Origin: Parcubacteria group bacterium GW2011_GWA1_40_21
Lineage (GTDB): Bacteria; Patescibacteriota; Minisyncoccia; Phycocordibacterales; GWA1-40-21
Direction: 5' to 3'
DNA: 52,148 nucleotides
Assembly: GCA_000996205.1 (NCBI GenBank)
Contig: LBYO01000002.1
Location: forward strand, 1-52,148
The first letter of the stretch is position 1. Every line of letters begins with the position of its first letter. Positions 7,479 to 43,840 of the stretch are shown here, piece after piece. The notes beneath the pieces are model-generated. The model saw nothing but the letters and a program-made list of their open reading frames with translations. It was not told the DNA's origin and ran no database searches. A program made the position numbers and the translations under genes.

Positions 7479-8390
7479 TTAAATCTCTCTTAAATAATGA
7501 CCTGTATTCTTAAAAAAAGATACTTTAGAAAAATTCAAATTTATTTTCCCTGAATATCGCAACATTGAAAAAATAGTGCCGTTTAAAAATACGGGGTTAT
7601 TCCAAGCAACTATAGATTGCGGTATCATATGAAACCAGCTTCTATACCCATCATACTCCAAAGATTTTTTTGATATTTCCTTTATTATTTTATCCAGTTT
7701 ATCCTTATCAGATTCTTCAGTAAGGTGATGCTTAAAAAGAGAATTGTAGACTAAATCAAAATATTTTGGCGGGAATTCGGCACCAAGATTAAAAATATCG
7801 TTTTTACACAAAATGACAGTGATTCCTCTGTTCGTTTTTGCTATTTCTTCAAGTCTGTTTTTCGTCAAGTTTTCAACATCAACAATCTCAACTGCTTTTC
7901 CTAAAAAATTTAGATTTTCTTTTGCTATTTTATTGGTGATCGGCGATTTGTCCACTCCGATGAAGATAATCGGTTTGCCGTATTTTTTCTCAAGCAATTG
8001 AGAAATGACTTGTCTGTCAACTTCCATCCCTCCCGCGCCCAAGTTGGCTAGTATAAGAGGTCTGTTCTCTTTCAAAATACTCTGAATGACTTTATCTGCT
8101 AACGGTTTTACTAATCCCGGACGATCTTTCCTCTCCATTTCTATCAATCTCTTATGCATCCTCACATCCCACTCCTCCACCGGAAAATCCGTCAATTCCA
8201 GAAGTCTTGAACCGTCAATCTTTGACGCTCTGGTCAGAAGCCACCATACATAGCGGGGCAAAGATTTCATCGCCTCCGCGAATTGTATGTTTTCCTCAAT
8301 CGCGTAAAGTCGACCGCTATATCGCGAGTCGTTCTTGAACTCCCGCAACTTTTCCAAAATGCCCTCTATTTCCATTCTTCTTTTTTTCAT
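7479..8390 (-). CDS. class I SAM-dependent methyltransferase-like protein
   Basis: It carries LILANLGAGGME (motif I), FIGVDKS (motif II) and DLVYNSLFKHHL. The fold-level call is tentative. Confidence 0.5.
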   Translation of the reverse strand: MKKRRMEIEGILEKLREFKNDSRYSGRLYAIEENIQFAEAMKSLPRYVWWLLTRASKIDGSRLLELTDFPVEEWDVRMHKRLIEMERKDRPGLVKPLADKVIQSILKENRPLILANLGAGGMEVDRQVISQLLEKKYGKPIIFIGVDKSPITNKIAKENLNFLGKAVEIVDVENLTKNRLEEIAKTNRGITVILCKNDIFNLGAEFPPKYFDLVYNSLFKHHLTEESDKDKLDKIIKEISKKSLEYDGYRSWFHMIPQSIVAWNNPVFLNGTIFSMLRYSGKINLNFSKVSFFKNTGHYLREI

Positions 8391-8455
8391 AATTGGAAGA
8401 AACTATCAGATTTAATGATACTCAATAGTATATCAGATAATTCCAAAAATGTTTT

Positions 8456-9529
8456 TTATTTTACTTCATTCGCAAACAAAATGTTCGGCTTCATTCGCAT
8501 TGAGCGCGCGGAGGGTTCGTCGGCGTAGCCAATGCGGAATAGCATTGGAATAGTTTTGCCTTCAACTCCAAAAGTCCGCTCTATATCAGAATAAGCGATC
8601 TTTATTGTTTCTAAATGATTCTGGCTGAAAACGCCGACATCCCCGCCGCCCTTTATCCTTTCCATAAAATATATAACGCCGGTGCACGGGTGAACGCTCA
8701 ATCCCAATTCAGTCGCTTTGAGCCAGACTCTCTCTGCCGTCCGTCCGGCATTTATAAAATCTTCGCGACTGTTCCCTTTCGCGACGACGACAGCCAACGC
8801 GCCGGAATTGGCGTATTTTTCGGCATTTTCTTTGGCGATAATTCTTGAAACTTTTCCGATCTTGTTTAAAATTTTCAAAATCAGCCAATTTTTGAAGAGC
8901 TTCACGCCTTTGAGCTGGTGAGGCAGGAATTCAAGAGTCTTGATATAAAAACCTCCCGCTTTGTCTTGGTCTTCTTCTTTCCAAAGAATGTGCTCGTAGA
9001 AAAAATCATGCAACTTTTTATTTTCAAAAATAATTTGTTCATTCACCGCAAGCGCTTTACCGAGAGTGTTGAGCGATTCTTCATCATCAATAATTTTTAA
9101 TTCTCCAAGTCCGGCCTCTCTTGCTGTCTCAATCAGTTGTTTTTTCTGATCATCTGATAATTTTTGGTGCGCGTGATCCTTCCTGTTCGTGCACCTCTTT
9201 GCAATGAAAGGATACAACGACAGCTCTCTTGAGTTAGTCGCATCGAGCGTCAAAGTGGCAACAAGATTCTGCTCTTCCTTTATGGGAAATAATTTAACAC
9301 TAGCCTTGTATCCGTATTTCAAAGCGACGATGACAATGTTTTCAATAAGCGCGCCGTGCGCGGCATAAGAACCTTTTTGCTCAAAATTATAAAGGGATGT
9401 GTCCGCCTCCGGCACATTGAAAATATGAATATCGCTTCCATCCGCCGCGAATTTCCACGGCTGGCAATTCTCGCCGGACGGCGCAAATACACTTTCCGTG
9501 ATAATTTCTTGAATATCTTTGTTATTCAT
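8456..9529 (-). CDS. double nitroreductase-fold FMN-dependent oxidoreductase
   Basis: It has the APSGENCQPWKF signature, and its length fits two nitroreductase-like halves. The start was trimmed from the TTG at 9583 to the ATG at 9529. Confidence 0.7.
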   Translation of the reverse strand: MNNKDIQEIITESVFAPSGENCQPWKFAADGSDIHIFNVPEADTSLYNFEQKGSYAAHGALIENIVIVALKYGYKASVKLFPIKEEQNLVATLTLDATNSRELSLYPFIAKRCTNRKDHAHQKLSDDQKKQLIETAREAGLGELKIIDDEESLNTLGKALAVNEQIIFENKKLHDFFYEHILWKEEDQDKAGGFYIKTLEFLPHQLKGVKLFKNWLILKILNKIGKVSRIIAKENAEKYANSGALAVVVAKGNSREDFINAGRTAERVWLKATELGLSVHPCTGVIYFMERIKGGGDVGVFSQNHLETIKIAYSDIERTFGVEGKTIPMLFRIGYADEPSARSMRMKPNILFANEVK

Positions 9530-9673: not shown

Positions 9674-10321
9674 TTAATACAAAGACTGGAAATATTTTAA
9701 ACTTACTTTTATAAATTTTTCAGTATTTTGTTCTTTCGTCCAAATCTTTTTAATTTCCTCCAGCTTACTTTTCAAATCCGGATAAAACAAAAGCTCCTCT
9801 GCCCCTACGAACTTCTGAATTGCCTTTAAATTAAGAAAAATTACATTAAAAATTTCAGAAAGTTCCCACAAAGCCTTGTCATCCTTTATACCCAACTCGT
9901 GGCAAAAATCATAAAAGGCAAAGTGGGTTAATTCATGAGCAATAACTTCTTTCCGCATATCATGCGACCGTTTGTAATAAACTTGAAAAGATTTATTTTC
10001 CAAATAACGAGGATTACAATTAAAAATAGACAAATAGCAAGTGTAATTTTCTTTACTGAAATCTCGTCCGAAATACTTTTGAAGTTCAAGAAAAAGAGGC
10101 TCTTTTATTTCATCAAAACACAACTTGGTATCTTTTAGAATTTCTTCCAATTTACCCTTGCTTTTCAGATAAAAATTATCTATATATTCAATATGGTTTT
10201 CTTTACTAATATGAGGATGATCATCTTGTATTTTTTTGCCAAAATCCGCTCCACCAACCATGGCATCGCGGAAAGACATATACACCTCTTTATCCAATTG
10301 TTTATTTAATTCTATTTTCAT
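9674..10321 (-). CDS. hypothetical protein with an HExxH motif (possible zinc metallopeptidase)
   Basis: The only recognisable motif is EVIAHELTHFAF. The start was trimmed from the TTG at 10330 to the ATG at 10321. Confidence 0.4.
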   Translation of the reverse strand: MKIELNKQLDKEVYMSFRDAMVGGADFGKKIQDDHPHISKENHIEYIDNFYLKSKGKLEEILKDTKLCFDEIKEPLFLELQKYFGRDFSKENYTCYLSIFNCNPRYLENKSFQVYYKRSHDMRKEVIAHELTHFAFYDFCHELGIKDDKALWELSEIFNVIFLNLKAIQKFVGAEELLFYPDLKSKLEEIKKIWTKEQNTEKFIKVSLKYFQSLY

Positions 10322-10344
10322 ATTAGTCAATACAATGTAAATAT

Positions 10345-11541
10345 TTACAAATTGAATATTTTTTTAAAATTTTCGGCGATTTTGCCGCGTTTTTCAACTT
10401 CTTCAAGAGAATTATAATTCGGCACGAGTTTCTCGTCCAAAGATATGAGGGCGCGATTGTTTTCAAGGGGCTGGCCACAAAGAATTTTGCGGACACAATA
10501 AGCGACCGCCGAGCCGTTCACAAGGGCGGCGCCACCGAGCTGAGGCCATGAGACGATGGTCTTGCCCATCTCAAGAAGAGATTGCTGCATTCTTTCCGTC
10601 ACATTCTCCGGTCCGACATGTTTTGTTATCATCCTGCCGATTCCGAATTTGTCCAATTTGGAAAGCATCTCATAGGACACCTCGCCCATTCTTCCTTGAA
10701 AAAATGGAGTGTTCGGGTCAAGGTCATATCTTTCAATATCCACCACGGCGTTGTCGCCATTGTCCGCTGCCATTACCACCGCTATTTTATGTTTCTTCGC
10801 TTGTTCGCGAATAAGATATTTCACCGCTAAATTATCAAGCTCGTCAATCACAATATCTAAGCCTTCAAAAAATTTGCCGATGTTTTCTTTGGTCAAACCT
10901 TCCGGAAACAATTCCACTTCGGCGTAAGGATTGATTTCGTAAATTTGGCGCGCGGTCATCTCCACTTTTAAAACGCCGAGATTGTCCACGCCCGTCCTTA
11001 TTCTATTGGTATTGGAAAGAGCCAAACGGTCAAGATCGGCGAGCTTGATTCGCTTCGCTCCGCCCTGAAGAACAATTGCGAGCGCGACGCTGTTCCCGAC
11101 GCTAAGTCCGCCGATGCCGACTATCGCGTTATAAAATTTTTCTTGCTCCTCTTTGTTTATAAGATTTTTATTTCTGGCGGTTCTTACCATTTGAAAATCG
11201 TCTTCTTCCAGAATGTGTGTCAATTTGGAAAGCCACGGAAAATAAACCCAGTGGCCGCTCTGCCATATCGGACATTCTTTATCCAGCGCAGAATAATAAT
11301 CTTCAAACTTTTTCTTAAAATCGGGAGCGTAGACCATGCTCGGATTTTTCACCGCGAATAACTCGTTCTGCTGTTCTTTGTAATCATCAGCAACGTACTG
11401 GATTCTCCTCAAATTAAATAAATCATTGGCGGCATTCTGATCTTCCGATTTTTTAAAATCAAAGACGGTCGGCTTGGAATCAATGGCTGCCGACGCTCTT
11501 TCGTCTAAACTTTCTTTCAATTCTTGTGATATATTTTTCAT
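10345..11541 (-). CDS. ThiF/MoeB/E1-like adenylyltransferase with a ~135-aa N-terminal extension (Rv1355c/MoeY-like N-terminal half)
   Basis: IVGIGGLSVGNSVALAIVLQGGAKRIKLADLDRLALSNTNR is the E1 nucleotide-binding loop with the SN.NR motif, and VIDELDNLAVKYL is the DN motif. Confidence 0.8.
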   Translation of the reverse strand: MKNISQELKESLDERASAAIDSKPTVFDFKKSEDQNAANDLFNLRRIQYVADDYKEQQNELFAVKNPSMVYAPDFKKKFEDYYSALDKECPIWQSGHWVYFPWLSKLTHILEEDDFQMVRTARNKNLINKEEQEKFYNAIVGIGGLSVGNSVALAIVLQGGAKRIKLADLDRLALSNTNRIRTGVDNLGVLKVEMTARQIYEINPYAEVELFPEGLTKENIGKFFEGLDIVIDELDNLAVKYLIREQAKKHKIAVVMAADNGDNAVVDIERYDLDPNTPFFQGRMGEVSYEMLSKLDKFGIGRMITKHVGPENVTERMQQSLLEMGKTIVSWPQLGGAALVNGSAVAYCVRKILCGQPLENNRALISLDEKLVPNYNSLEEVEKRGKIAENFKKIFNL

Positions 11542-26693: not shown

Positions 26694-29600
26694 CTACTCC
26701 CCCTTCTTATCAATTATCTCCTGAATCATTTTATACTTCGCGCTGCCTTTGAAGCCTGTTCCTGCCGGTATTAGCCGTCCTATTATCACATTCTCCTTGA
26801 GTCCGACAAGCTTGTCTGTGTTTCCTCTTATGGCGGAGTTTATAAGGATTCTCGTAGTGTGCTGGAACGAGGCGGCTGACAAGAAACTTTTCCTTGAAAG
26901 AGAAACTTCGGTGATTCCCATAACGACAGGCTCGGCTTTCGCTTCTTCTCCTCCCGCCACTTTCGCTTTATTGTTTTCTCCAACAATTTCAAAATCAGTC
27001 GTCAATTCTCCGACGGACAAAGCGGTACTTCCTGAATTTTTTACTCTTTTTCTTGAGAACATCTGTCTTACGATAATTTCAATATGCTTTCTGGAAACAG
27101 TCTCACCTTGAAGTTCGTAGAGTTTGTTTACTTCGGAAATCACATAGTTCATAGCTTTTTCCTTGCCAGCATATTTAAAAACATCGTCAATATCAGCGGA
27201 GCCATCGGTGATTATGTCGCCTTTCTTGACCTTGTCGCCGACTTTGACAAGCGACATTCTCTTATAATTCATTGAATACTCAATCTCAGAGACTTTCTTT
27301 CCTTTTGGCTTGTCTTCCAGTTCCGGAATTATAGTTATGACTTTTTCCTTTTCTAAATCTTTGATGGAAGAAACAACGCCGCTTACTTCCGAGACGATAG
27401 CCGGATTTTTCGGCTTTCTTTTTTCAAAAACCTCTTCCACTCTGGGCAAGCCTTGAGTAATGTCTCCGCCGATTGACGCTATTCCTCCAGAGTGGAAAGT
27501 TCTCATAGTGAGCTGCGTGCCCGGCTCGCCTATGGCTTGAGCGGCTATCGTGCCGACCGCTTCTCCAAGTCCTATGAGTTTGTCTTTGCCGAGGTCAATG
27601 CCATAGCATTGCGCGCAAATGCCCTGAATCGTTTTGCAAGCAAGAGGTGATCTGACCGACACTTCGTCAACGCCTTCTTTCTCAATTTTCAACGCGTCAT
27701 TCTTTGAAAGAAGATGCCCTTTCTTGAACATAATGTTCTTTTTTGAATCAAGCGCGTCAGCCGCCAATACCCTGCCGCGTATGTTTTTGGCGATTGAAGC
27801 TTCCATTCCCGAAGCGCTTTCTTTTTTAATTGATATTCCTTCCTTGGTTCCGCAATCATCTTCAGTGATAAGCACATCTTGCCCGACATCAAAAAGTTTT
27901 CTCGTGAGATACCCCGCCTTCGCCGTGTTCAAAGCCGTGTCGGTGAGGCCTTTGCGCGAACCGTGAGTCGTTATGAAATATTCAATCGGAGTAAGTCCTT
28001 CTTTGGTGGAGCTTATTACCGGAAATTCAATGGTGTCGCCGGCCGTATTTTGAATGAGACCTTTCATACCGGCCATCTGAGTAATAGCCCCAAGCGAACC
28101 TCTGGCTCCGGACTTCCACATATCGTGAACCGAACCGTTAGGATCAAGGCTTTCCGGTATGAGCTTCTCAATCTCATTTTTGGCGCCATGCCAAATTTCA
28201 ATATTTTTTCTCAATTTTTCATCTTTATTGAGCAATCCTTCTTTGTATTGCTCCACGACTTCTTCGTATTTTTCCTTCGCCGCACTAATCACGGCTCCTT
28301 TTCTCTCCGGAATTTTAATATCGTCAATTCCCCAGCTGATTCCGGAAAGCGTCGCGTATTTGAAGCCGAAGGACTTAATCCTGTCCATAACATCCGGAAC
28401 TTTTTCTATGCCATAAATGTTTATCATATCGTCAACGATTCCAGACATAACTTTCTTGGTTATCTCTTTGTTTTCATAATGATAATCATCAGGCAAAATG
28501 CTGTTGAAAAGAAGCCTGCCTACAGTAGTTTCAAAAATCTTGCCGCCGAATTCTTTATATCTAAGACTGTCAGTAGGCATAACTTTTATTTTGGCTCTAA
28601 GGCTGACCGCTCCGAAATCATTAGCTGTGATAGCCTCGTTCGGTGATGAGAAATATTTTCCCTCGCCCTTGTCGCCCGGGACCACTTTTGTAATCCAGTA
28701 ACAACCCAAGATAATATCCAAAAGTTTGGCTGAAATTACCGGTTCGCCGTTTCCCGGCTTCAATATGTTTTTGTCTGAAGCCATAATTTCTCTGGCTTCG
28801 GCTTGTGCCTCTTCGCCCAATGGAACATGCACAGCCATATTGTCGCCGTCAAAGTCGGCATTGAAAGCGGTACAGACCAGAGGATGAACTTGAATGGCGT
28901 TGCCTTCTATAAGGACGGGCTTGAAAGCTTGAATGCCCAGCCGGTGAAGAGTGGGCGCTCTGTTCAAAAGCACATATTTGTCTTTTATCACATTCTCAAG
29001 AATAGCCCAGACTTCCGGAATTCCGTCATCAATCAACCTGCCTGCTCCTCTTATGTTGTAGGCGAGCTCGCTTCTCAAAAGCTCCGAGATGACAAAAGGT
29101 CTGAAGAGTTCAAGAACCATATGTTTCGGAAGCCCGCATTGATTGAGCCTGAGTTCCGGGCCAACGACTATGACTGATCGGCCGGAATAATCCACTCTCT
29201 TTCCAAGCAAATTAGCCCTAAAAAGACCTCTCTTGCCTTTCAAATTATCAGCAATGGATTTCAGGGGTCGTTTTTGAGCCGGACTCATGGAGGTAAACAA
29301 AGAGCCGCCACTTTTTATTGAATTATCAATAAGCGAATCAACGGCCTCTTGAAGAATTCTTTTTTCGTTTCTTAAAATCACATCCGGAGCTTTTATCTCT
29401 TTCAGCTTTTTCAACCTGTTGTTTCTGTTGATGACTCTCCTGTATAAATCATTGACATCGGAAGTGGCGTATCGTCCGCCGTCAAGCGGAACCATCGGCC
29501 TCAAAGCCGGCGGTATCACGGGAACTCGGAGAAGAAACATCCATTCCGGCCTTATGGAAGAAGACATCATCGCCTTTATCACGCTTAAGCGCTTGTTTAT

Positions 29601-30389
29601 TTTTTCTTTTTCCACGGAACTTGATTTTTCATAACTCGCCTCAAGCTTTGAAACAAGTTTTTTCAAGTCAATATTCTTCAGAATGTTATAAACTGCTTCA
29701 GCGCCGATTCCGGCTTCAAACAAAGTGCCGTATTTCACGGAAAATTTATGATATACGATCTCATCAAGCACTTTTCCCTCTTGGATGCTTTCAATATCCT
29801 TTTTGGCGTTAAGCAGAAGCTCCTTGAGAGCGTCTTTTGTTTTTTCATCATTGGCTGATTTGACTTTTGATTTGTATTCGCCGTCAAGCTCCTTTAGGAA
29901 TCTTTCTCTTTCCGATTCATTGACTTGAGTGATGATATAGCCGGCAAAATAGACGACTTTTTCAAGGTCGGTGGCGGTCATTCCGAGCACAAGGCCGATT
30001 CTGGAAGGAGTGCCTTTCAAAAACCAAATGTGCGATACGGGACTGGCAAGCTCTATATGCCCCATTCTTTCTCTTCTTACGATTGATCTGGTTATTTCAA
30101 CTCCGCACTTTTCGCAAATTATTCCTTTGTATCTCACTCCTTTGTATTTTCCGCAATAACATTCATAGTCTCTGTCCGGTCCGAAAATCTTTTCGTCAAA
30201 AAGACCGTTTTTTTCGCTTCTCTGCGTCCTGTAATTTATAGTTTCCGGTTTAGTCACTTCCCCGAATGACCATTCTTTAATTCGCTCCGGAGAAGCGAGC
30301 TTTAAAGTGACGGTATCAAAATCGTTCTGGTCCGATGCCGACCTTGCCTTAAAATTATATTGATTTTTAAATTCATTTATATTGCTCAT
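26694..30389 (-). CDS. rpoC: DNA-directed RNA polymerase subunit beta'
   Basis: The 1231-aa ORF carries the NADFDGD catalytic loop and the zinc motif CYCGKYKGVRYKGIICEKCGVE. Confidence 0.97.
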   Translation of the reverse strand: MSNINEFKNQYNFKARSASDQNDFDTVTLKLASPERIKEWSFGEVTKPETINYRTQRSEKNGLFDEKIFGPDRDYECYCGKYKGVRYKGIICEKCGVEITRSIVRRERMGHIELASPVSHIWFLKGTPSRIGLVLGMTATDLEKVVYFAGYIITQVNESERERFLKELDGEYKSKVKSANDEKTKDALKELLLNAKKDIESIQEGKVLDEIVYHKFSVKYGTLFEAGIGAEAVYNILKNIDLKKLVSKLEASYEKSSSVEKEKINKRLSVIKAMMSSSIRPEWMFLLRVPVIPPALRPMVPLDGGRYATSDVNDLYRRVINRNNRLKKLKEIKAPDVILRNEKRILQEAVDSLIDNSIKSGGSLFTSMSPAQKRPLKSIADNLKGKRGLFRANLLGKRVDYSGRSVIVVGPELRLNQCGLPKHMVLELFRPFVISELLRSELAYNIRGAGRLIDDGIPEVWAILENVIKDKYVLLNRAPTLHRLGIQAFKPVLIEGNAIQVHPLVCTAFNADFDGDNMAVHVPLGEEAQAEAREIMASDKNILKPGNGEPVISAKLLDIILGCYWITKVVPGDKGEGKYFSSPNEAITANDFGAVSLRAKIKVMPTDSLRYKEFGGKIFETTVGRLLFNSILPDDYHYENKEITKKVMSGIVDDMINIYGIEKVPDVMDRIKSFGFKYATLSGISWGIDDIKIPERKGAVISAAKEKYEEVVEQYKEGLLNKDEKLRKNIEIWHGAKNEIEKLIPESLDPNGSVHDMWKSGARGSLGAITQMAGMKGLIQNTAGDTIEFPVISSTKEGLTPIEYFITTHGSRKGLTDTALNTAKAGYLTRKLFDVGQDVLITEDDCGTKEGISIKKESASGMEASIAKNIRGRVLAADALDSKKNIMFKKGHLLSKNDALKIEKEGVDEVSVRSPLACKTIQGICAQCYGIDLGKDKLIGLGEAVGTIAAQAIGEPGTQLTMRTFHSGGIASIGGDITQGLPRVEEVFEKRKPKNPAIVSEVSGVVSSIKDLEKEKVITIIPELEDKPKGKKVSEIEYSMNYKRMSLVKVGDKVKKGDIITDGSADIDDVFKYAGKEKAMNYVISEVNKLYELQGETVSRKHIEIIVRQMFSRKRVKNSGSTALSVGELTTDFEIVGENNKAKVAGGEEAKAEPVVMGITEVSLSRKSFLSAASFQHTTRILINSAIRGNTDKLVGLKENVIIGRLIPAGTGFKGSAKYKMIQEIIDKKGE

Positions 30390-30401
30390 AGTTGTTTTTT
30401 A

Positions 30402-33400
30402 TTATTCATCTCCATAATTACGGTCGTCTTTCTTCTCCTTTTTTAATTCAACGTCAAGCGACAATCCCCTCAAATTGTTCAAAAGCACATTGAATGACGC
30501 CGGCGTGTGAGGCTGTTTTATTTTTTCTCCCTTGACGATAGAGTCAAAAGCGGCCGACCTTCCCACAATGTCGTCTGATTTGATGGTGAGCATTTCGCGC
30601 AAAGTATGAGCCACTCCGTGACCCAAAAGCGCCCAGACTTCCATTTCTCCGAATCTCTGCCCTCCGGCTTGAGCCTTGCCTCCAAGAGGCTGTTGAGTTA
30701 TGAGAGAATAAGGACCGATGGAACGCATATGTATCTTGTCTTCAACCATATGATGAAGTTTGAGCATATACATATAACCTATGGCGATATCCTGATCAAA
30801 AGGCACTCCGGTCCTTCCGTCATAGAGTTTAATCTTTCCGTTTTGATTGAAGCCGGCTTTCTTAAGTTCTTCTTTTATTTCAGCGTCAGTGGCTCCGGCA
30901 AACGGCGGAACAATCGCCTGATAGTTTAGAGCGTGAGCGGCAAGACCGAGGTGGAGTTCCAAAATCTGCCCCAAATTCATACGAGAAGGCACTCCGAGCG
31001 GAGTAAGAATAATATCAACAGGCGTGCCGTCCGGAAGGTAAGGCATATCTTCCTCCGGAAGAATTTTTGAAATGACTCCTTTGTTTCCGTGCCGTCCGGC
31101 GAGCTTGTCTCCGACTGAAACATTTCGGAGTTGCGCCACTTCTATGTGGATTCTTTTTATTATTCCAGACTCCAGCTTGTCTCCTTTCTCCCTTGAAAAT
31201 ATCTTGACGCTGATAATTCTTCCTCTCTTTCCTCCTTCAAGCCGTTTGGAAGTATCTTTGACATCTCTGGCTTTTTCTCCAAAAATTGACCTTAAAAGAC
31301 GCTCTTCCGGAGTAAGCTGGGTTTCGCCTTTTGGCGTGATTTTTCCGACAAGAATATCGCCCTGGCGCACTTCCGCACCTACTCTGACTATTCCGTCCTC
31401 ATCCAAATTCTTCAATTTGCCCTCTCCCACATTCGGAATATCGTGAGTGGTGATTTCCGGACCGAGCTTGGTGTCTCTCACATTAACGACAAAATCTTCT
31501 ATATGAATGGATGTGAATTTGCTGTTTTTGACAAGCCGTTCGGAAATTATTATGGCGTCTTCGTAATTTGCTCCGGACCAAGACACGAAAGCCACCAAAA
31601 CATTTTGCCCAAGGGCCATTTCGCCGTTTTTGCTGGACGAGGTGTCGGCAAGAAGGTCGCCTTTCTTGACTTTTTGTCCGAGGTCTACGGTAGGTCTCTG
31701 ATGAAAAGCCATAAAGCTGTTTGTTCTTGAGAATTGAACGAGATTATATGTCTTTTCTTTGCCTTTATTATTTTCAACGATTATTTTCTTGGAATCAACG
31801 TAAGAAACGGTTCCATCTTCATCGGAAGTTATTATTCTTCCCGTATCAAGCGCCGCTTTTGATTCAATACCTGTGGCCACAAGCGGGGCTTCCGGCGATA
31901 TGCAGGGAACGGCTTGTTTTTGCATGTTGGATCCCATAAGCGCGCGGTTCGCGTCATCGTGGTTCAAAAACGGGATCATTGATGTCGCTATGGAGAAAGC
32001 TTGGTTCGTGGCCACATCAATAAAATCAACTTCTTCTTTTTTAACAAGCTGGGGTTCGCCGTTGACACGCACTTCCACGTCATCATTCACTATGAGTCCG
32101 TTTTCGTCATATTCATTGGCGGCGTGCGCAATTTTATAATTTTCTTCTTCCAGCGCGTTCAGATAGTTGATTTCTTTGGTGACTTTTCCGTTTTTCACTT
32201 TAGCGTAAGGAGTTTCAACCATTCCGAATTCATTGATTCTGGCGTAAGTGGCAAGCCTCAAAATAAGTCCGATGTTCGGACCCTCGGGAGTGTGAATCGG
32301 GCAGACTCTGCCATAATGCGAAGAGTGGACATCTCGCACTTCAAAGCCGGCTCTTTCCCTTGAAAGGCCTCCCGGACCGAGGGCTGAAAGAGTTCTCAAA
32401 TGCTCAAGCTCGGTGAGTATGTTTTCCTGCTGCATAAATTGAGAAAGCTGGTTTGTGGTGAAAAATTCTTTTATGCGCGCTTGAAGCGGTCTTGGCGAAA
32501 TAAACTGAACGGGCGTAGTAATTTCAGGGTCAATAGTGGACATTCTGTCCTGAATATTTCTTTTCATTTGCGACATTCCCACGCGCATTTTCTGCTGAAG
32601 AAGCTCACCCACGAATTTCACCCTTCTTGAGCCGAAATGGTCTATATCGTCTTCAAGAGCATCAGGATTGGCGTTCAATTCGGCGATATTGTTTACGATC
32701 ACGGCCATATCGTCAAGAGAAATGGTCTTTCTCTCCAGTTCTTTTTCATCAAGGCTTTTATTAAATCTCTTGTTGAATCTGAACCTGCCGACTTTTGAAA
32801 GGTCGTATCTTTCTTCATTAAAAATTGAACGGATAAATTCTTTGGCATTTTCAACATTGGCCAAATCTCCGTCTCTAAGCTTTTTGTGTATCTCAATAAA
32901 TGACTCTTCCGCGGTCTTCGCGTGGTCTTTGGCCAATGTTTGTTCTATTGATTTCTTAGCGTTCTCTTTGCCCTTGAAAAGATCCATGATTTCCTTGTCG
33001 GTATTCGCTCCGATAACCCTAAGGAGAGATGTCATCGCGAACTTCCTCTTTTTATCAATCTTCACGTAAATCGCGCCGTCGGCATCCGTTTCTATTTCTA
33101 TCCAAGCTCCCCGCGCCGGAATTATTTTTGCTCCAAAATAATTTTTTCCTTTTATCTCGCTTGAAGTGAAAAATATTCCGTAGGAACGGGCAAGCTGGGG
33201 AACAATGACTCTTTCAATGCCGTTGATAATGAAAGTTCCGTGAGAAGTCATTATCGGAAAATCCGCCAAAAATATTTCCTGTTCTTTGACTGAATCCAAT
33301 GTCTTGTTTTTAAGCCTCGCTTTTATCTTAAGCGTGGCTTCGTAGGAGATTTTGTTTTCCTTGGCATAATGCTCATCGTATTTAGCCTCCGAAATTTCAA

Positions 33401-33620
33401 AGCCGGTGAACGCAAGTTCAAATTTCTTGTCTCCGTAATCCTTAATCGGAGAAAAATCTTTAAAAACTTCCGCGATGCCTTGCTCAAGAAGCCATTTGAA
33501 CGAGTCCAGCTGCGGCTTTACCAGGTTTGGTATTGAGGTCAAAGGTTCTTTAAATTTGCCGAAGTATTTTTTTTCTTTCTTCTTTTCAATATCAAAAATC
33601 GGTTTTATTTGAGTCTTCAT
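30402..33620 (-). CDS. rpoB: DNA-directed RNA polymerase subunit beta
   Basis: Canonical RpoB motifs are present throughout, for example GRHGNKGV and QRFGEMEVWAL. The ORF track starts at the TTG at 33641; the first ATG is at 33620, so the start is uncertain by 7 codons. Confidence 0.95.
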   Translation of the reverse strand: MKTQIKPIFDIEKKKEKKYFGKFKEPLTSIPNLVKPQLDSFKWLLEQGIAEVFKDFSPIKDYGDKKFELAFTGFEISEAKYDEHYAKENKISYEATLKIKARLKNKTLDSVKEQEIFLADFPIMTSHGTFIINGIERVIVPQLARSYGIFFTSSEIKGKNYFGAKIIPARGAWIEIETDADGAIYVKIDKKRKFAMTSLLRVIGANTDKEIMDLFKGKENAKKSIEQTLAKDHAKTAEESFIEIHKKLRDGDLANVENAKEFIRSIFNEERYDLSKVGRFRFNKRFNKSLDEKELERKTISLDDMAVIVNNIAELNANPDALEDDIDHFGSRRVKFVGELLQQKMRVGMSQMKRNIQDRMSTIDPEITTPVQFISPRPLQARIKEFFTTNQLSQFMQQENILTELEHLRTLSALGPGGLSRERAGFEVRDVHSSHYGRVCPIHTPEGPNIGLILRLATYARINEFGMVETPYAKVKNGKVTKEINYLNALEEENYKIAHAANEYDENGLIVNDDVEVRVNGEPQLVKKEEVDFIDVATNQAFSIATSMIPFLNHDDANRALMGSNMQKQAVPCISPEAPLVATGIESKAALDTGRIITSDEDGTVSYVDSKKIIVENNKGKEKTYNLVQFSRTNSFMAFHQRPTVDLGQKVKKGDLLADTSSSKNGEMALGQNVLVAFVSWSGANYEDAIIISERLVKNSKFTSIHIEDFVVNVRDTKLGPEITTHDIPNVGEGKLKNLDEDGIVRVGAEVRQGDILVGKITPKGETQLTPEERLLRSIFGEKARDVKDTSKRLEGGKRGRIISVKIFSREKGDKLESGIIKRIHIEVAQLRNVSVGDKLAGRHGNKGVISKILPEEDMPYLPDGTPVDIILTPLGVPSRMNLGQILELHLGLAAHALNYQAIVPPFAGATDAEIKEELKKAGFNQNGKIKLYDGRTGVPFDQDIAIGYMYMLKLHHMVEDKIHMRSIGPYSLITQQPLGGKAQAGGQRFGEMEVWALLGHGVAHTLREMLTIKSDDIVGRSAAFDSIVKGEKIKQPHTPASFNVLLNNLRGLSLDVELKKEKKDDRNYGDE

Positions 33621-33643
33621 ATTTTTTAACAAATTTAACAAAC

Positions 33644-33932: not shown

Positions 33933-34475
33933 TTAATCAAATTTTATCGGAACAACTAACTCGTCATCATTTTGAGACAGACCTGAAGGATTGTCTTTTT
34001 TAAGAATCAGCTTGCCTGTCTTGACTGAAGGCTTTTCAAAATTGAGAGTCGCTTTAAACGGCACGAATTCCGTGGTCATCCATTCCCCTTCAGCTTGCGC
34101 TATCCCCACGGCGATTTCATTGCCATCGTCATCAAAAAGTCTTATCGGAAATGACGCCTCAAAAAACCAATAACCTCTGGCAAGACCGGAAACGACAAAA
34201 GGGCTTTTGACTATCTTGTTCGGCAAAGGTGCGCTCACTTTTATCAGATCGCTTTTATCGGCAAACGCAGTATCATCTTTTTCAACATCTTCCGTAAAAG
34301 ACTTCCCGTCCGGCGTTCGGCATTGTCTTGGATAAGATTCCAAAATTGAGTAGCCTTTAAGCGCGCACTCTTTGAAATTTATTGGTTCTGTATCGTCCCT
34401 CCTGCCGACATCAAAAACAAGCGCCGCGATTACAAATATAAATATTATTGAAATTGCAATTATTATTTTTTTCAT
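33933..34475 (-). CDS. secreted/anchored protein with a Gmad2-like immunoglobulin-fold domain
   Basis: There is an N-terminal TM/signal segment, and the C-terminal segment VVSGLARGYWFFEASFPIRLFDDDGNEI...EFVPFKATLNF resembles Gmad2 domains. The call is made from memory. Confidence 0.45.
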   Translation of the reverse strand: MKKIIIAISIIFIFVIAALVFDVGRRDDTEPINFKECALKGYSILESYPRQCRTPDGKSFTEDVEKDDTAFADKSDLIKVSAPLPNKIVKSPFVVSGLARGYWFFEASFPIRLFDDDGNEIAVGIAQAEGEWMTTEFVPFKATLNFEKPSVKTGKLILKKDNPSGLSQNDDELVVPIKFD

Positions 34476-34501
34476 AATTTTTACAAAAACCTATATTTGT
34501 A

Positions 34502-34530
34502 AATATTTGGACATCGGATGTCCAAATATT
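34502..34530. repeat. C-family palindrome AATATTTGGACATC-G-GATGTCCAAATATT
   Basis: The arms are a perfect 14 nt. It is related to 43761-43803. Confidence 0.6.
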
Positions 34531-35101
34531 ATTTTAAAGATTTCCTTAATAAATATTTGATTAGAGTGTAAATCCCATATATTGCCATCGCCCCTATGAA
34601 TGTTGAAATGATAATCTTAAATTCGTAGCGCTTCAACTTCCCCAAAAATATTTCCAAAACATCACCGAAGAAATAACCGGAAATTCCAACAATCAAAACC
34701 CAAAGAATTGATCCGAGAGTATTAAATAAAAGAAAAACCGGCGTCTTGATGGTGGACATACCAAGACTCAAGGGAACGACAGTTCTAAAACCGTACATAA
34801 AGCGAAGCGCGAAAGAAATGAATGGGGCTCTTTTGTCAATATGTCTTTGCGGCTTTAGCATCAGATTTTTTAATTTGGGCCATCTTTCAATCACTTTCTT
34901 GCCTTTATGCCTTCCGACAAAGAACCAAGCCCAATCGCTCACTATAGCTCCCATAAACGCGAAGAAAAAAACAAGCGGGAGCTTCAAAAAACCTCCATAT
35001 GCCGCGAGGCCTCCCAAGACCAAGACCGCTTCCCCTTCAAATATTCCACCCAGAAAAACAGCGACGTAGCCATAAGAATCTATGAGTGAAATAAGCGACA
35101 T
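34529..35101 (-). CDS. DedA family membrane protein
   Basis: It carries YGYVAVFLGGIFEGEAVLVLGG and the FMYGFRTVVPLSLG motifs. The start was trimmed to the ATG at 35101. Confidence 0.8.
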   Translation of the reverse strand: MSLISLIDSYGYVAVFLGGIFEGEAVLVLGGLAAYGGFLKLPLVFFFAFMGAIVSDWAWFFVGRHKGKKVIERWPKLKNLMLKPQRHIDKRAPFISFALRFMYGFRTVVPLSLGMSTIKTPVFLLFNTLGSILWVLIVGISGYFFGDVLEIFLGKLKRYEFKIIISTFIGAMAIYGIYTLIKYLLRKSLK

Positions 35102-35157
35102 CAAACAATTCTACACGAATTTTGCGCTGAAACAAAATCGCCCGCGCAGTTCATCTC

Positions 35158-40949: not shown

Positions 40950-42251
40950 ATGCGTAATAATATCGTCCATCAAGGAGCGGGAGAATTGACCTATGAGATA
41001 AGAGGGATAGTGGAAGTGGCTGAAAAAATAAAAGGTCTCGGGCAGGAAATATATTGGGAAAACATCGGCGATCCGGTGGCAAAAGGTTATCAAATTCCAG
41101 AATGGATAAAAGATATGGTTAAAAAAGCGATTGATGATAACAAGTCGTTCGCCTACAATCCGACTAAAGGACTGCTTGAAACCCGCAATTTTCTAATGAA
41201 AAAACGCAACTCTAAAGGCGGAGCCAAGATTACCGCCGAAGACATTTGTTTTTTCAACGGACTAGGCGACGCGATTTCAAAGGTATACACATACCTTAAA
41301 AAAGAAGCCCGCGTGATAGGTCCATCGCCCGCTTATTCCACCCATTCTTCCGCCGAAGGCGCGCACGCCGGCTATCCTCATATTACTTATAATCTCCTGC
41401 CGGAAAAAAATTGGCTACCGGATCTAAACGACTTGCGAAATAAAATAAAATATAACCCCGCCATTTCCGGAATTTTAATCATCAACCCGGACAATCCAAC
41501 CGGAATGGTTTATCCGAAGAAAGTCCTGCAAGAGATGGTAAAAATCGCCAAAGAATACGACCTATTTATCGTGAGCGACGAAATTTATTGCAATGTGGCG
41601 CACGACAAAAAAAAGATGACCGCGCTTGCCGAAATAATCGGCGATGTCCCGGGCATAGCGATGAAAGGCATATCTAAAGAATTCCCTTGGCCTGGAAGCC
41701 GATGCGGTTGGATAGAAATTTACAATAAAGACAAAGATGAAATTTTCGCGAAATATGTAAAAAGCATTGTGAACGCCAAGATGCTTGAAGTCTGCTCCAC
41801 CACTCTGCCCCAGAGCGTCATCCCCGCCATAATGTCCGACCCGCGCTACGAATCTCATCTTGAAGAAAGGCGGAAATTTTATAAAAAAAGAGCCGGAATG
41901 GCGTTTGATATTTTAAAAAAAGTTCAAGGTATAATTTCCCCGAAAGCGGCAGGCGCTTTTTATGTTTCTACTGTATTCAAGGACGGTGTATTAAACGGCA
42001 GGCAAACCTTAAAAATTAAAAATGACAAAGTGAGAAAATTCGTGGAAGAAAAAACGGCGAACGGCGTTTCGCCGGACAAAAGATTCGTCTATTATCTTAT
42101 GGGCGCGACAGGCATCTGCGTCGTTCCCCTTTCCGGATTCAACTGCAACCTCCAAGGCTTCCGCGCCACCCTCCTTGAATCCGACGACTCCAAATTCAAA
42201 TGGATTTTTGAGACTTTGGGGAAGAAGATAGGTGAATATTTGAAAAGCTAA
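40950..42251 (+). CDS. class I/II pyridoxal-phosphate-dependent aminotransferase (AlaA-like)
   Basis: The 433-aa ORF carries INPDNPTG, VSDEIY and SKEFPWPGSRCGW, the last containing the PLP lysine. Confidence 0.85.
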   Translation: MRNNIVHQGAGELTYEIRGIVEVAEKIKGLGQEIYWENIGDPVAKGYQIPEWIKDMVKKAIDDNKSFAYNPTKGLLETRNFLMKKRNSKGGAKITAEDICFFNGLGDAISKVYTYLKKEARVIGPSPAYSTHSSAEGAHAGYPHITYNLLPEKNWLPDLNDLRNKIKYNPAISGILIINPDNPTGMVYPKKVLQEMVKIAKEYDLFIVSDEIYCNVAHDKKKMTALAEIIGDVPGIAMKGISKEFPWPGSRCGWIEIYNKDKDEIFAKYVKSIVNAKMLEVCSTTLPQSVIPAIMSDPRYESHLEERRKFYKKRAGMAFDILKKVQGIISPKAAGAFYVSTVFKDGVLNGRQTLKIKNDKVRKFVEEKTANGVSPDKRFVYYLMGATGICVVPLSGFNCNLQGFRATLLESDDSKFKWIFETLGKKIGEYLKS

Positions 42252-42300
42252 TTCTATACCCCCTTGAACATAGAGTGTCTAAGCTCTTTAATTCAGTCAT

Positions 42301-42334
42301 AAAAAAAATCCACAGAAAAATTATCTTCTGTGGA
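42301..42334 (-). terminator. intrinsic terminator of the ncRNA locus (its hairpin can also act for the plus-strand aminotransferase gene)
   Basis: The minus-strand RNA reads UCCACAGAA-gauaauuu-UUCUGUGGA followed by U8 (the plus-strand A-run at 42301-42308). Confidence 0.6.
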
Positions 42335-42626
42335 CTTTTCAAAATGTCCAAGTCTACCTTATACTGGTTACCCAGTTTTCTCCCAAAGAGGGTGGTATTT
42401 CAAGGACGAATCTGCCCCGCCGGAACGGTAGCCTAGCATGTGGCTTCATTTTCTCCCACCTATCCTACGCAACTTTTTGCAAGGTAGACCGAATTGACTA
42501 GACGGAATCGAACCGCCCCCGCTTCCCAAACCAAGAGGAGTATAATCGCTAGGAAAATATACCTGTCCTAATTTATAGGGAAAAAATGCGGACTGCCTTT
42601 GTTAGTCAGGACATTAAGAACAATCT
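42301..42626 (-). ncRNA. candidate ~325-nt ncRNA: tRNA-like T-arm/acceptor module followed by a 23S rRNA L1-stalk (H76-78)-like module
   Basis: There is no ORF, and the locus has its own promoter and terminator. GCGUAGGAUAGGUGGGAG (42453-42470) and CCUUGAAAUACCACCCU (42389-42405) are the conserved L1-stalk strands. They are closed by the helix 42481-42490 with 42352-42360. The T-arm GGCGG-UUCGAUU-CCGUC lies at 42501-42517. The ends are approximate. Confidence 0.5.
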
Positions 42627-42632
42627 TGAATA

Positions 42633-42660
42633 AGTATGATTATTTTTGCGCGTTTGTCAA
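42633..42660 (-). promoter_or_regulatory. candidate promoter TTGACA-16 nt-CATACT for the ncRNA locus
   Basis: On the minus strand the hexamers lie at 42655-42660 and 42633-42638. The geometry matches the rpoB candidate promoter. Confidence 0.45.
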
Positions 42661-42666
42661 TAAAAA

Positions 42667-43149
42667 TCATATTTTCAATTCCATCCTTAATGTCTCCGGT
42701 AAGTATTTATTCTTTGGATATTTAACAATCTTTACTTTTTGAAATCTGCATTGTTCATAAGCACGAATCGCCCTAAGGTTTGTTGGTCTTACTTCCAAAT
42801 AAATATTAGAAATTCCAATTTTTTTCGCCTTTCTCACGAGAATATTTATTGCCCTTGATCCAATTCCTTTATCCCAATATTTTTTCTCTCCAATGACAAT
42901 CTGCGTTTCGTGCCAATTATTTCGCCTTTTAACCAATGATATGTGCCCGATAACTTCCCGGTCCGCAATCATCCTAAAATTATAATCATTTTTGTTTTCT
43001 AATATCACTTGAAAATATTTATCGACTTCTTGATCTGAAATTACCTTCAAAATACCGCTTGTTAATTTAAGCAGTTCTTTGTCCCTCCACCATTTTGCAA
43101 AATAATTTTTGTCAGACAGTTTAATTTTTCTTAAGTTAATTTTAATCAT
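42667..43149 (-). CDS. GNAT N-acetyltransferase, RimJ/RimL-like
   Basis: It carries IVIGEKKYWDKGIGSRAINILV (motif A) and NLRAIRAYEQCRFQK. The start was trimmed to the ATG at 43149. Confidence 0.75.
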   Translation of the reverse strand: MIKINLRKIKLSDKNYFAKWWRDKELLKLTSGILKVISDQEVDKYFQVILENKNDYNFRMIADREVIGHISLVKRRNNWHETQIVIGEKKYWDKGIGSRAINILVRKAKKIGISNIYLEVRPTNLRAIRAYEQCRFQKVKIVKYPKNKYLPETLRMELKI

Positions 43150-43172
43150 AAATAAAAAAGATGGTCTACCAA

Positions 43173-43427
43173 TCAATACAATTCTGAGTGGGTGCCGATT
43201 TTCATAAATATAGCCACGCCGTTTTCTTCTTTAAATATCGCTCTGTAATCTCCTGTCACATTGATACTTCTGCAATCTGTGAAAGTCTTGTCTACTGAGT
43301 GATTTTTCAGCGTTGCGTTAGTCCTGTCTTTCATAAAGACTTCTAAACGCTCATAAAACTGATTCTGTAATTTCGGTGATAATTTCTTCAATTTCTTTTT
43401 GAAGTCCTTATGAAAATTAATCTCCAT
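43173..43427 (-). CDS. type II toxin, RelE/YafQ family mRNA interferase
   Basis: The 84-aa ORF carries CRSINVTGDYRAIFKEENGVAIFMKIGTHSELY, the typical C-terminal signature. Confidence 0.8.
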   Translation of the reverse strand: MEINFHKDFKKKLKKLSPKLQNQFYERLEVFMKDRTNATLKNHSVDKTFTDCRSINVTGDYRAIFKEENGVAIFMKIGTHSELY

Positions 43428-43430
43428 ATA

Positions 43431-43706
43431 TTAACTCTTGAGATACGCGATAGCATCTTTTGCATTATTGAATCCGGGAGAAATATTTTTACCACTCTTA
43501 ATATCCTTTAATTCGCGAACGATGCTTTTGCGCGCGCGAGGATTAAAAACTTCTTTAACCACCAGACCGACATTGAGCTGGTTATCCACAAAAGCTTTAG
43601 TGGCGAGCTTAAGAATTGTGGTAAAAGAAATGCCCTCATTTTGAGCTTTTCTCATAGCTTGATTCTTAAGATTCTTGTCAATTTTAAAAATTACTTGAGT
43701 GTTCAT
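43431..43706 (-). CDS. type II antitoxin, RelB/DinJ (ribbon-helix-helix) family
   Basis: KIDKNLKNQAMRKAQNEGISFTTILKLATKAFV parallels the DinJ N-terminus. It lies 3 nt upstream of the toxin. Confidence 0.7.
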   Translation of the reverse strand: MNTQVIFKIDKNLKNQAMRKAQNEGISFTTILKLATKAFVDNQLNVGLVVKEVFNPRARKSIVRELKDIKSGKNISPGFNNAKDAIAYLKS

Positions 43707-43735
43707 GGTTTTATTATGCTTAGTTTAATGTATAT

Positions 43736-43764
43736 ATATTATATATCTATTATATATATGTCAA
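43736..43764 (-). promoter_or_regulatory. candidate toxin-antitoxin operon promoter TTGACA-17 nt-TAATAT, overlapped by an AT palindrome (possible operator)
   Basis: On the minus strand the hexamers lie at 43759-43764 and 43736-43741. The spacer is TATATATAATAGATATA. Confidence 0.4.
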
Positions 43765-43803
43765 ATACCAACTTGGACATCCGATGTCCAAGTTGGTATT
43801 TGA
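43761..43803. repeat. C-family palindrome (21-nt arms) TCAAATACCAACTTGGACATC-C-GATGTCCAAGTTGGTATTTGA
   Basis: It is a perfect palindrome between the smc 3' end and the toxin-antitoxin promoter. Confidence 0.7.
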
Positions 43804-43840
43804 TTTACTTTATAGACTAATTTCAGTTAAAAAACTGAAA

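Follow-up and report, generated by a model that had tools for sequence, protein, structure and literature searches.

The stretch of DNA analysed here (the window) comprises 52,148 nucleotides (nt) of contig LBYO01000002.1 from Parcubacteria group bacterium GW2011_GWA1_40_21. The element in question lies on the minus strand, in an intergenic gap of 415 nt (42252-42666) that is bordered on one side by an aminotransferase gene (40950-42251, plus strand) and on the other by a GNAT gene (42667-43176, minus strand), both assigned with Pfam. The open reading frames (ORFs) inside the gap are mechanical only and do not exceed 53 aa. A preliminary description had placed in this gap a self-contained non-coding locus in which a copy of the L1 stalk of 23S ribosomal RNA (rRNA), consisting of helices H76-H78, is joined to a module resembling transfer RNA (tRNA). 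All the motifs that it named, namely the promoter, terminator, T-arm, acceptor-like helix (helix A), closing helix and rRNA-like strings, were verified on the minus strand at the positions it had given. The parts of the locus are listed below from the 5' to the 3' end of the transcript; MFE denotes the minimum free energy fold.

42655-42660, minus strand: -35 hexamer TTGACA, from a promoter scan (10 of 12 matches, spacer of 16 nt); coordinates checked.
42633-42638, minus strand: -10 hexamer CATACT, from the promoter scan; coordinates checked.
42616-42632, minus strand: 5' leader UAUUCAAGAUUGUUCUU, beginning at the predicted transcription start and forming a small hairpin in the MFE fold.
42609-42615, minus strand: 5' strand of helix P1, AAUGUCC, which pairs with 42343-42349 in the MFE fold.
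42603-42608, minus strand: 5' strand of helix A (acceptor-like), UGACUA, which pairs with 42495-42500.
42593-42602, minus strand: D-loop-like single strand ACAAAGGCAG with an internal GG, read from the sequence.
42518-42592, minus strand: variable long arm at the position of the anticodon arm, UCCGC..UUCCC paired with GGGAA..GCGGG, plus an apical hairpin (MFE fold).
42501-42517, minus strand: T-arm GGCGG-UUCGAUU-CCGUC with a canonical T-loop; coordinates checked.
42495-42500, minus strand: 3' strand of helix A, UAGUCA (MFE fold; coordinates checked).
42471-42490, minus strand: 5' region equivalent to H76, with the strand GGUCUACCUU at 42481-42490, which pairs with AAGGUAGAC (MFE fold).
42469-42480, minus strand: inserted mini-hairpin GCAAAAAGUUGC, the last 2 nt of which overlap the next part.
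42453-42470, minus strand: GCGUAGGAUAGGUGGGAG, comprising the top of H76, the first T-loop strand and the 5' strand of H77; equivalent to Escherichia coli 2110-2127.
42406-42452, minus strand: region equivalent to H78, 47 nt (54 nt if counted up to AUACCAC; 43 nt in E. coli).
42389-42405, minus strand: CCUUGAAAUACCACCCU, comprising the second T-loop strand and the 3' strand of H77; equivalent to E. coli 2164-2180.
42352-42388, minus strand: 3' side equivalent to H76, with two small hairpins (MFE fold).
42380-42390, minus strand: first small hairpin of the H76 3' side, overlapping the 3' strand of H77 by 2 nt.
42364-42375, minus strand: hairpin CUGGGUAACCAG with a GNRA loop, in the H76 3' side (MFE fold).
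42352-42360, minus strand: AAGGUAGAC, which closes the L1 domain by pairing with GGUCUACCUU.
42343-42349, minus strand: 3' strand of P1, GGACAUU (MFE fold; coordinates checked).
42301-42334, minus strand: intrinsic terminator, a 9-bp hairpin UCCACAGAA/UUCUGUGGA (42309-42334) followed by U8 (42301-42308) (MFE fold).

Unconstrained MFE folding of the transcript of ~330 nt reproduced every helix named in the preliminary description. The fold had a free energy of -111 kcal/mol (z = -4.68 against dinucleotide shuffles), and none of 100 shuffles was as stable. Helix A consists in the window of six Watson-Crick pairs at an offset of 0 from the T-arm. The hairpin at 42301-42334 was not listed by the terminator scan, although it is present in the MFE fold, and the sub-threshold terminator-type alignments obtained with Rfam all fall on it. 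Neither Rfam nor ARAGORN detected any rRNA, tRNA or transfer-messenger RNA (tmRNA) gene within the 52-kb window, in agreement with the earlier observation that no rRNA operon is nearby. Exact-protein look-ups returned 11 contigs that stem from different metagenome samples or assemblies (L002-L009 and L040-L042; L numbers designate the loci collected in this work) in which the 415-nt spacer is identical and the adjacent GNAT protein varies. These are identical copies of the locus only and were useless for covariation; the 11 identical spacers nevertheless argue against an assembly chimera with rRNA reads, a possibility that had been raised beforehand. A stand-alone gene of ~330 nt for a structured non-coding RNA, with a predicted promoter at 42633-42660 and a predicted terminator at 42301-42334, is shown by this combination of sequence signals on the minus strand.

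Two strands of the L1 module were compared as strings with the 23S gene rrlH of E. coli MG1655. GTAGGATAGGTGGGAG is identical to positions 2112-2127 (16 nt) and CCTTGAAATACCACCCT to positions 2164-2180 (17 nt), so the likeness that the preliminary description had pointed out proved to be exact; in the case of GCGUAGGAUAGGUGGGAG it is the last 16 nt that match 2112-2127. Each rRNA-like string is single-copy in the 52-kb window, and the number expected in shuffled sequence with up to two mismatches is 0.00 for the 2112-2127 string and 0.02 for the 2164-2180 string. Exact comparison with rrlH was used because a blastn search with the locus as query gave no match in the set of all complete E. coli genomes; across 28 Gb, strings of this length are too short to reach significance in BLAST.

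Homologues were collected by scanning a set of species-representative genomes for a T-loop followed 22-52 nt downstream by AGGATAGGTGGGAG. Five matches were obtained, four of them in bins titled Saccharibacteria, Sungiibacteriota, Buchananbacteria and 'Patescibacteria group' and one in a bin titled only 'bacterium', and a scan of JGI metagenomes based on the same idea yielded 25 loci. The fused pattern had no match among viral contigs, and there is therefore no sign of phage origin. The patterns demanded exact copies of GTTCRA(W/N)TC and of AGGATAGGTGGGAG. The 3' L1 strand UUGAAAUACCACCC, the elements UGAAG...GGAG(C/U)C at the base of H78 a complementary H76 and, in 15 of 21 members, an H78 segment of exactly 43 nt lay outside the search pattern and were present all the same. 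Removal of duplicates and of two non-members left ~20 distinct members.

A covariance model (R1, 142 model positions) was built from a seed of 18 other members, with the window left out. Its sole match in the 52-kb window was 42364-42517 (minus strand), which was full length (positions 1-142 of 142) and scored 79.8 bits (E=1.6e-19); judged by this alignment, the window locus is a true member of the family. The anatomy proposed for the window, in which one self-contained non-coding gene combines an L1-stalk module with a tRNA-like module, holds across the family. A lack of conserved or covarying homologues, which the preliminary description had named as grounds for rejection, is clearly not what was found. 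The family is known so far from bins of the candidate phyla radiation (CPR)/Patescibacteria and from environmental metagenome contigs only. It is apparently undescribed, as no Rfam 15 family is dedicated to the whole RNA or reaches gathering in the window and no published description of such an RNA was found in full-text literature searches and targeted look-ups. We rate it as a new class of bacterial non-coding RNA built from two known modules.

Both non-members had been recovered by the pattern scans. L018 was rejected as a chance match, and L033 was rejected as a true tRNA followed by one L1 strand only. At the latter locus (8349-8490, plus strand, of a 75-kb contig) GTAGGATAGGTGGGAG lies ~40 nt past a genuine tRNA gene and the 3' L1 strand is missing; the R1 score is 31.8 bits. 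The locus is either a family member that has decayed or the product of a separate capture event.

The relationship of the L1 module to rRNA was examined with covariance models in both directions. E. coli 23S positions 2075-2205 align colinearly with the family, and the genuine L1 stalk of E. coli receives 90.3 bits from R1, via the L1 part of the model only. Conversely, the bacterial large subunit (LSU) rRNA model of Rfam (RF02541) passed its gathering threshold of 50 in two homologues, L015 with 61.6 bits and L036 with 53.7 bits, in both cases over model positions 2126-2215. On the window copy the LSU model gave nothing at gathering or at E<=10, so that the alignment expected at 42352-42490 in the preliminary description formally fails; the copy is missed because its H78 is atypical (54 nt vs 43). 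The H78 segment has exactly the E. coli length of 43 nt in 15 of the 21 members; it measures 23 nt in L024, 54 nt in the window and 84 nt in L014. The module retains both T-loop strands, the H77 helix GGUGG/CCACC and the elements UGAAG...GGAG at the base of H78; in the window, H78 has kept the UGAAG...GA elements and, at its base, the helix GAA/UUC, and its apical part is rearranged. With the homologues and model R1 settling the point, the L1 module is a true homologue of 23S H76-H78.

Few members of the family diverge as far as the window copy. Its H76 carries the mini-hairpins CUGGGUAACCAG (42364-42375) and GCAAAAAGUUGC (42469-42480), which are absent from most members, and its H78 apex is also different.

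The order of parts is shared by the family, each member of which is organized around a multi-helix junction. From the 5' end, the first strand of P1 is followed by a short junction, typically (A/U)AA, by helix A (first pair C-G), by a purine-rich strand that usually contains GG, by zero to two variable hairpins and by the T-arm, with a canonical UUCRANU loop. The 3' strand of helix A comes 0-3 nt past the T-arm and leads into the 5' strand of H76, the first T-loop strand with H77, H78, the second T-loop strand with H77, and the 3' strand of H76. Optional hairpins, the 3' strand of P1 and, in most members, a terminator complete the RNA. The T-arm ends 30-38 nt ahead of the L1 strand, a narrow range. 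Compact members are L024 (218 nt) and L028 (223 nt). A GC-rich hairpin with a U-run lies directly past P1 in most homologues, and boxes of the TTGACA/TATAAT type were seen by eye upstream of several; the 5' leader UAUUCAAGAUUGUUCUU of the window shows no conservation among homologues. In L015 (contig Ga0066640_10028751) P1, GAGAUGUGGAA/UUCCACGUCUC, is directly followed by a U-run without a separate terminator hairpin, and P1 may double there as the terminator stem.

Support for the helices was sought column by column where the alignment could be placed objectively, and by comparing cognate with non-cognate pairing elsewhere. In the T-stem, pair 1 occurs as GC5/AU5/CG5 and pair 2 as AU9/GC3/CG2 in the objectively placed alignment, and four of the five pairs show two-sided changes in the curated alignment. 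H78 covaries as well: one pair is AU11/GC11, and the basal pair in columns 73/116 is A-U in the window and C-G elsewhere, a compensatory change. H77 is invariant and thus uninformative on covariation. An ungapped register of H76 across members failed owing to bulges, and a duplex test was applied to this helix; the strands of H76 paired with a mean of -16.0 kcal/mol within members and -11.0 kcal/mol between members, a difference reached by none of 20000 permutations. Helix A, anchored at the C of AAC and required to pair 0-3 nt from the T-arm, was found in 14 of 19 members compared with 4.9 expected (0 of 200000 simulations); the window copy lacks this AAC junction anchor. An anchored test of P1, in which the 13 nt upstream of helix A were paired with the member's own 3' region, gave -13.6 vs -9.1 kcal/mol. 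None of 50000 permutations reached this mean, and the cognate partner was the best in 10 of 19 rows, with the window ranking 1/19 by row and by column. P1 and helix A had first been spotted by eye, and the curated 51-column alignment (96.7 % pairing, double changes in 14 of 15 pairs) is circular for both and was given no weight for them. Covariation or cognate-specific pairing thus supports the T-stem, H78, H76, P1 and helix A.

The platform pair of the L1 module, equivalent to 23S 2112/2169 (42468 and 42400 in the window), corresponds to the two bases that in the ribosome form the surface stacked on the tRNA elbow. It is G/A in 14 of the 21 members. It switches jointly to A/G (L014, L029), C/G (L017) and G/C (L011), and is G/U once. 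A purine-rich, GG-containing stretch occupies the D-loop-like position in most members, and its GG may pair with the T-loop.

The likeness to the ribosomal L1 stalk thus extends to the exact 16-nt and 17-nt strands, the order of helices and H77, which are common to the family RNA, and to the 43-nt H78 of most members. The differences lie in the surroundings. The family RNA stands outside any 23S gene and has its own predicted promoter and terminator; no 23S gene of ~2.9 kb surrounds the module, and no rRNA was found in the 52-kb window or at any homologue locus. The base of H76 leads into P1 and the tRNA-like junction and not into H75/H79, H76 has additional bulges or mini-hairpins, and the H78 apex is variable. 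The module is, on these comparisons, homologous to an rRNA domain and not itself an rRNA gene.

The module is nonetheless as rRNA-like as a real stalk, judged from the score of R1 on E. coli (90 bits) and from the LSU matches, which raises the question of whether it serves the ribosome as a split rRNA, a role that the preliminary description had also listed. The carrier 23S would then lack H76-H78, the RNA would supply the stalk in trans, and P1 or the tRNA-like module would act as a docking or assembly handle. Loss of H78 and/or uL1 is documented in some CPR lineages, and uL1, bL9 or H78 is often missing from CPR ribosomes (PMC9297842); fragmented rRNAs put together from separate transcripts also exist, for example in Chlamydomonas mitochondria (PMC8660880). 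However, P1 closes the RNA on itself and no free strand was seen that could rebuild the H75/H76/H79 junction, a tRNA-like module would be superfluous for a ribosome, and the RNA has its own predicted promoter and terminator. Moreover, congeners of the window organism have no such gene at the syntenic site, and one member was found in a bin of Saccharibacteria, a phylum that has uL1 and is not listed as lacking H78 (PMC9297842), a comparison that holds at the level of the phylum and not of the same genome. A split rRNA is distinctly unlikely on balance.

The second module is tRNA-like in a narrow sense: the T-arm, the acceptor-like helix and the D-loop-like purine stretch are conserved, and a D-stem and a conserved anticodon arm are absent. 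The long arm that the preliminary description saw in place of the anticodon region is present in the MFE fold of the window, but it is not a conserved part of the family and ranges from absent (L010, L019, L028) to ~75 nt. ARAGORN predicted 0 tRNA and 0 tmRNA genes in the window. Every member is rejected as a tRNA by ARAGORN and by the Rfam model RF00005, which matched only ordinary tRNAs near homologues, never the module, and the tmRNA models (clan CL00001) gave only local matches of 10-12 bits to the 17-nt T-arm. No match to T-box or RNase P models was found on the RNA (E up to 10 for the window and up to 0.5 for four homologues).

The tRNA-like domain of tmRNA and the YrlA/Y RNAs have in common with the family RNA a genuine T-arm on which an acceptor-like helix is stacked, a reduced, stemless D region and another helix in place of the anticodon arm. 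In YrlA a closing stem is also formed between the 5' and 3' ends, as by P1 here. In contrast to tmRNA, the family RNA has no CCA end, no G3-U70, no tag reading frame and no pseudoknots; it gave no YrlA match, and the rRNA domain that it carries is present in none of these RNAs.

[quoted passage not shown] RNase P and T-boxes contact tRNA elbows with the same device (PMC4810234), and the flat double-T-loop platform of T-box stem I and of the RNase P S-domain, which stacks on the elbow, is predicted for the family RNA too. The motifs of T-boxes and RNase P are convergent and of unrelated sequence, whereas the family motif is a direct copy of rRNA; their tRNA comes in trans, whereas the family RNA has a built-in elbow and lacks a specifier or catalytic domain. 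A trans-acting tRNA binder could be built on this platform. It would capture the elbows of tRNAs or pre-tRNAs for sequestration, chaperoning or sensing, with the in-cis module serving as competitor or lid. T-boxes, RNase P and the ribosome all use the device to bind tRNA in trans (PMC4810234), co-variation maintains the pair that corresponds to 2112/2169 in the platform, and tRNA and RNase P RNA genes lie near several loci. Elbow stacking alone is weak and non-specific, however, and the second contact of T-boxes and RNase P, to the anticodon or the acceptor end, has no conserved counterpart here. The variable arm is not conserved, and the retention of the uL1-binding helices would be left unexplained. 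Such a role appears rather unlikely, although it is less so than that of a split rRNA.

The protein uL1 recognizes H77/H78 as well as mRNAs that imitate this site, through which it autoregulates. This established behaviour suggests another explanation, a cis-regulatory uL1 leader or attenuator for the rplK-rplA operon, and in one lineage (the L014/L045 context) the RNA does lie directly past rplJ-rplL. The autoregulatory sites of the bacterial L11/L1 operon leader and of archaeal L1 mRNA likewise reproduce the H77/H78 surface for uL1 off the ribosome. They are minimal, however, consisting of one helix and an asymmetric loop in the operon's own mRNA leader, whereas the family RNA is a three-helix stalk with a tRNA-like fusion on a separate, terminated transcript (predicted) that is unlinked to rplA. 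The RNA was upstream of rplA at none of the loci examined, and its flanks in the window and 10 homologue loci are unrelated to rplK/rplA. It has its own terminator, and the downstream genes are often convergent, as in the window and in L014/L045. In sister Buchananbacteria and Falkowbacteria only 55 and 33 nt, respectively, follow rplL, which leaves no room for the RNA. The upstream genes differ in nearly every member, namely YchF (L030), L7/L12 (L014), TopA (L022), a ComF-like gene (L021), CobA (L036), an IS200-type transposase (L019), KilA-N (L010), a HerA-like gene (L015), PGK (L011) and L21 (L038); the L23 and L39 loci show, by eye, the same C-terminal residues as the L21 gene upstream in L038. 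An uL1 leader is largely refuted by this context and must be considered highly improbable.

The rplKAJL-rpoBC cluster is broken up in the window genome and in the Buchananbacteria carrier. In the latter (L045 9436-10405) rplJ-rplL have no rplK-rplA upstream. In the window, genes that are rpoB- and rpoC-like by size and sequence, recognized by eye only, occupy 30402-33641 (TTG start) and 26694-30389, respectively. This putative rpoB/rpoC pair (26694-33641, with 33933-35104 beside it) is preceded by ORFs of 180 and 191 aa of membrane type and not by rplJ-rplL. A 10-kb extension of the window genome contains aminoacyl-tRNA synthetase genes, gyrB and dnaE and no ribosomal cluster.

In the window, the RNA is part of a block of 1.6 kb (42252-43840) that also contains the GNAT gene (42667-43176; Acetyltransf_3-type, PF13302), a ParE/YafQ-like toxin gene (43173-43427) that overlaps GNAT by 4 nt, and a putative antitoxin gene of 91 aa (43431-43706). 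The start of the RNA lies 6 nt past the GNAT stop codon, congeners lack the 1.6-kb block in its entirety, and mobile-element genes lie near some members (the IS200-type transposase of L019 and the KilA-N gene of L010). These features would fit a part of, or a decoy for, the GNAT/ParE-YafQ cassette, or an inert scrap of rRNA and tRNA. The preliminary description had likewise listed an rRNA fragment captured beside a toxin-antitoxin module among the possible roles. No GNAT or toxin gene occurred among the 10 other upstream neighbours examined, however, the RNA has its own predicted promoter, and its structure covaries across several candidate phyla, unlike that of inert scrap. Named relatives of its RNase R place the window organism among the Parcubacteria-type Patescibacteria. 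In four congeneric loci (L048-L050 and L052; RNase R 83-87% identical) the RNase R, aminotransferase and SMC-like genes are kept and an unrelated spacer of 386-462 nt replaces the block. R1 had no match at these syntenic loci. The block, with its toxin-antitoxin pair and acetyltransferase, reflects an insertion or deletion specific to the lineage, and the RNA gene is positionally mobile even within the genus. Since the block is absent in congeners and the neighbours vary, the link with the toxin-antitoxin pair is coincidental; the cassette or scrap explanation is already contradicted at the family level, and the chance that it is correct is very slight.

Within the spacer that replaces the block, gene callers place a small candidate ORF of 69-89 aa without a Pfam match in L048 (7851-8120, plus strand) and L052 (7888-8097, plus strand).

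The explanation that we favour, albeit tentatively, is that the RNA is a free-standing mimic of the ribosomal complex between the L1 stalk and the tRNA elbow in the E site, which would serve as a sink or decoy and is predicted to bind uL1. It unites two of the roles considered in the preliminary description, those of an L1 decoy or regulatory RNA and of an RNA that binds tRNA elbows. The L1 module would fold as it does in the ribosome and would offer a binding site for uL1 together with the flat platform of interdigitated T-loops that stacks on a tRNA elbow; the uL1-recognition helices are conserved in the family. The elbow would most simply be provided by the RNA's own tRNA-like module, or alternatively by a second copy or a cellular tRNA. 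The resulting particle would imitate the E-site complex of 'L1 stalk + deacylated tRNA'. Its target as an off-ribosome sink or decoy would be uL1 or else a factor that senses the state of the L1 stalk and tRNA. The adjacent GNAT and ParE/YafQ genes would be no part of the particle. There are precedents for such mimicry, as 6S RNA imitates open promoter DNA and ribosomal-protein leaders imitate rRNA sites. With regard to origin, it is possible, though more doubtful than the mimicry itself, that the ribosomal L1 stalk was duplicated out of 23S rRNA and fused to a tRNA-like elbow, and that the resulting autonomous RNA, or its particle with uL1, reproduces the E-site complex away from the ribosome.

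Several observations weigh against this mimicry. Helix A and the T-stem together amount to ~10 bp and H76 to ~20 bp, so that the arms are unequal for docking in cis. The H78 apex is rearranged in the window, nearly deleted in L024 and expanded in L014, and the T-loop partner in H78 may be dispensable. The spacing of 30-38 nt between the T-arm and the L1 strand may merely follow the conserved length of H76, and the invariance of GTTCRA(W/N)TC and AGGATAGGTGGGAG, like the restriction to CPR, is partly an artefact of the search patterns. When P1 and helix A were sought permissively and without an anchor, the outcome was no better than with shuffles (Fisher p=0.18), and the support for these two helices therefore rests on the anchored tests. 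The RNA is absent from the syntenic site in congeners, and its position is consequently not conserved. As regards the presumed protein partner, rplA is absent from the 52-kb window and the 10-kb extension, Pfam searches of the window ORFs returned no L1, L11, L10 or L12, and some Parcubacteria are entirely without uL1 (PMC9297842).

The unequal arms would, by estimate, favour docking in trans over docking in cis, and both partners of a known RNA-RNA docking pair are contained in one molecule. The elbow of one copy might accordingly dock on the L1 platform of another, forming head-to-tail dimers or rings whose function would reside in the assembled state, and the large bacterial RNAs ROOL, GOLLD and OLE have reportedly been seen by recent cryo-electron microscopy to form RNA-only multimers. 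Self-assembly of this kind is pure speculation, however, and it predicts no conserved feature beyond those of the other models; we regard it as very unlikely, slightly more so than a split rRNA.

If the E-site mimic that we favour is real, it would be the fourth natural class of elbow binder with interdigitated T-loops and the first made by copying rRNA. To our knowledge, no free-standing copy of a functional rRNA domain has been known in bacteria, the known rRNA mimics being minimal protein sites inside mRNAs. With the L1 stalk and a tRNA elbow, the two sides of the E-site contact, in one conserved molecule, such an RNA would provide a small, tractable model of this contact. It would add a class to the three known elbow-gripping RNAs, and a review has predicted further ones (PMC4810234). 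Functionally it would represent a regulator or sink in CPR translation or, in an extreme version, a detachable L1 stalk for stalk-less ribosomes, and it would bear on why CPR ribosomes so often lack uL1, bL9 or H78 (PMC9297842). Loci of this type could be taken for incomplete 23S genes or chimeric assemblies, an error that a covariance model of the family would correct.

Other RNA genes were seen beside some members. Directly past the family RNA of L036 (~10260-10609) lies a full bacterial RNase P RNA gene (9875-10265, minus strand; RF00010, 175.7 bits) with promoter-like boxes of its own, and the family is therefore not an RNase P variant. Two tRNA genes occur elsewhere in the L036 locus, and ordinary tRNA genes follow the family RNA in L015 and L024.

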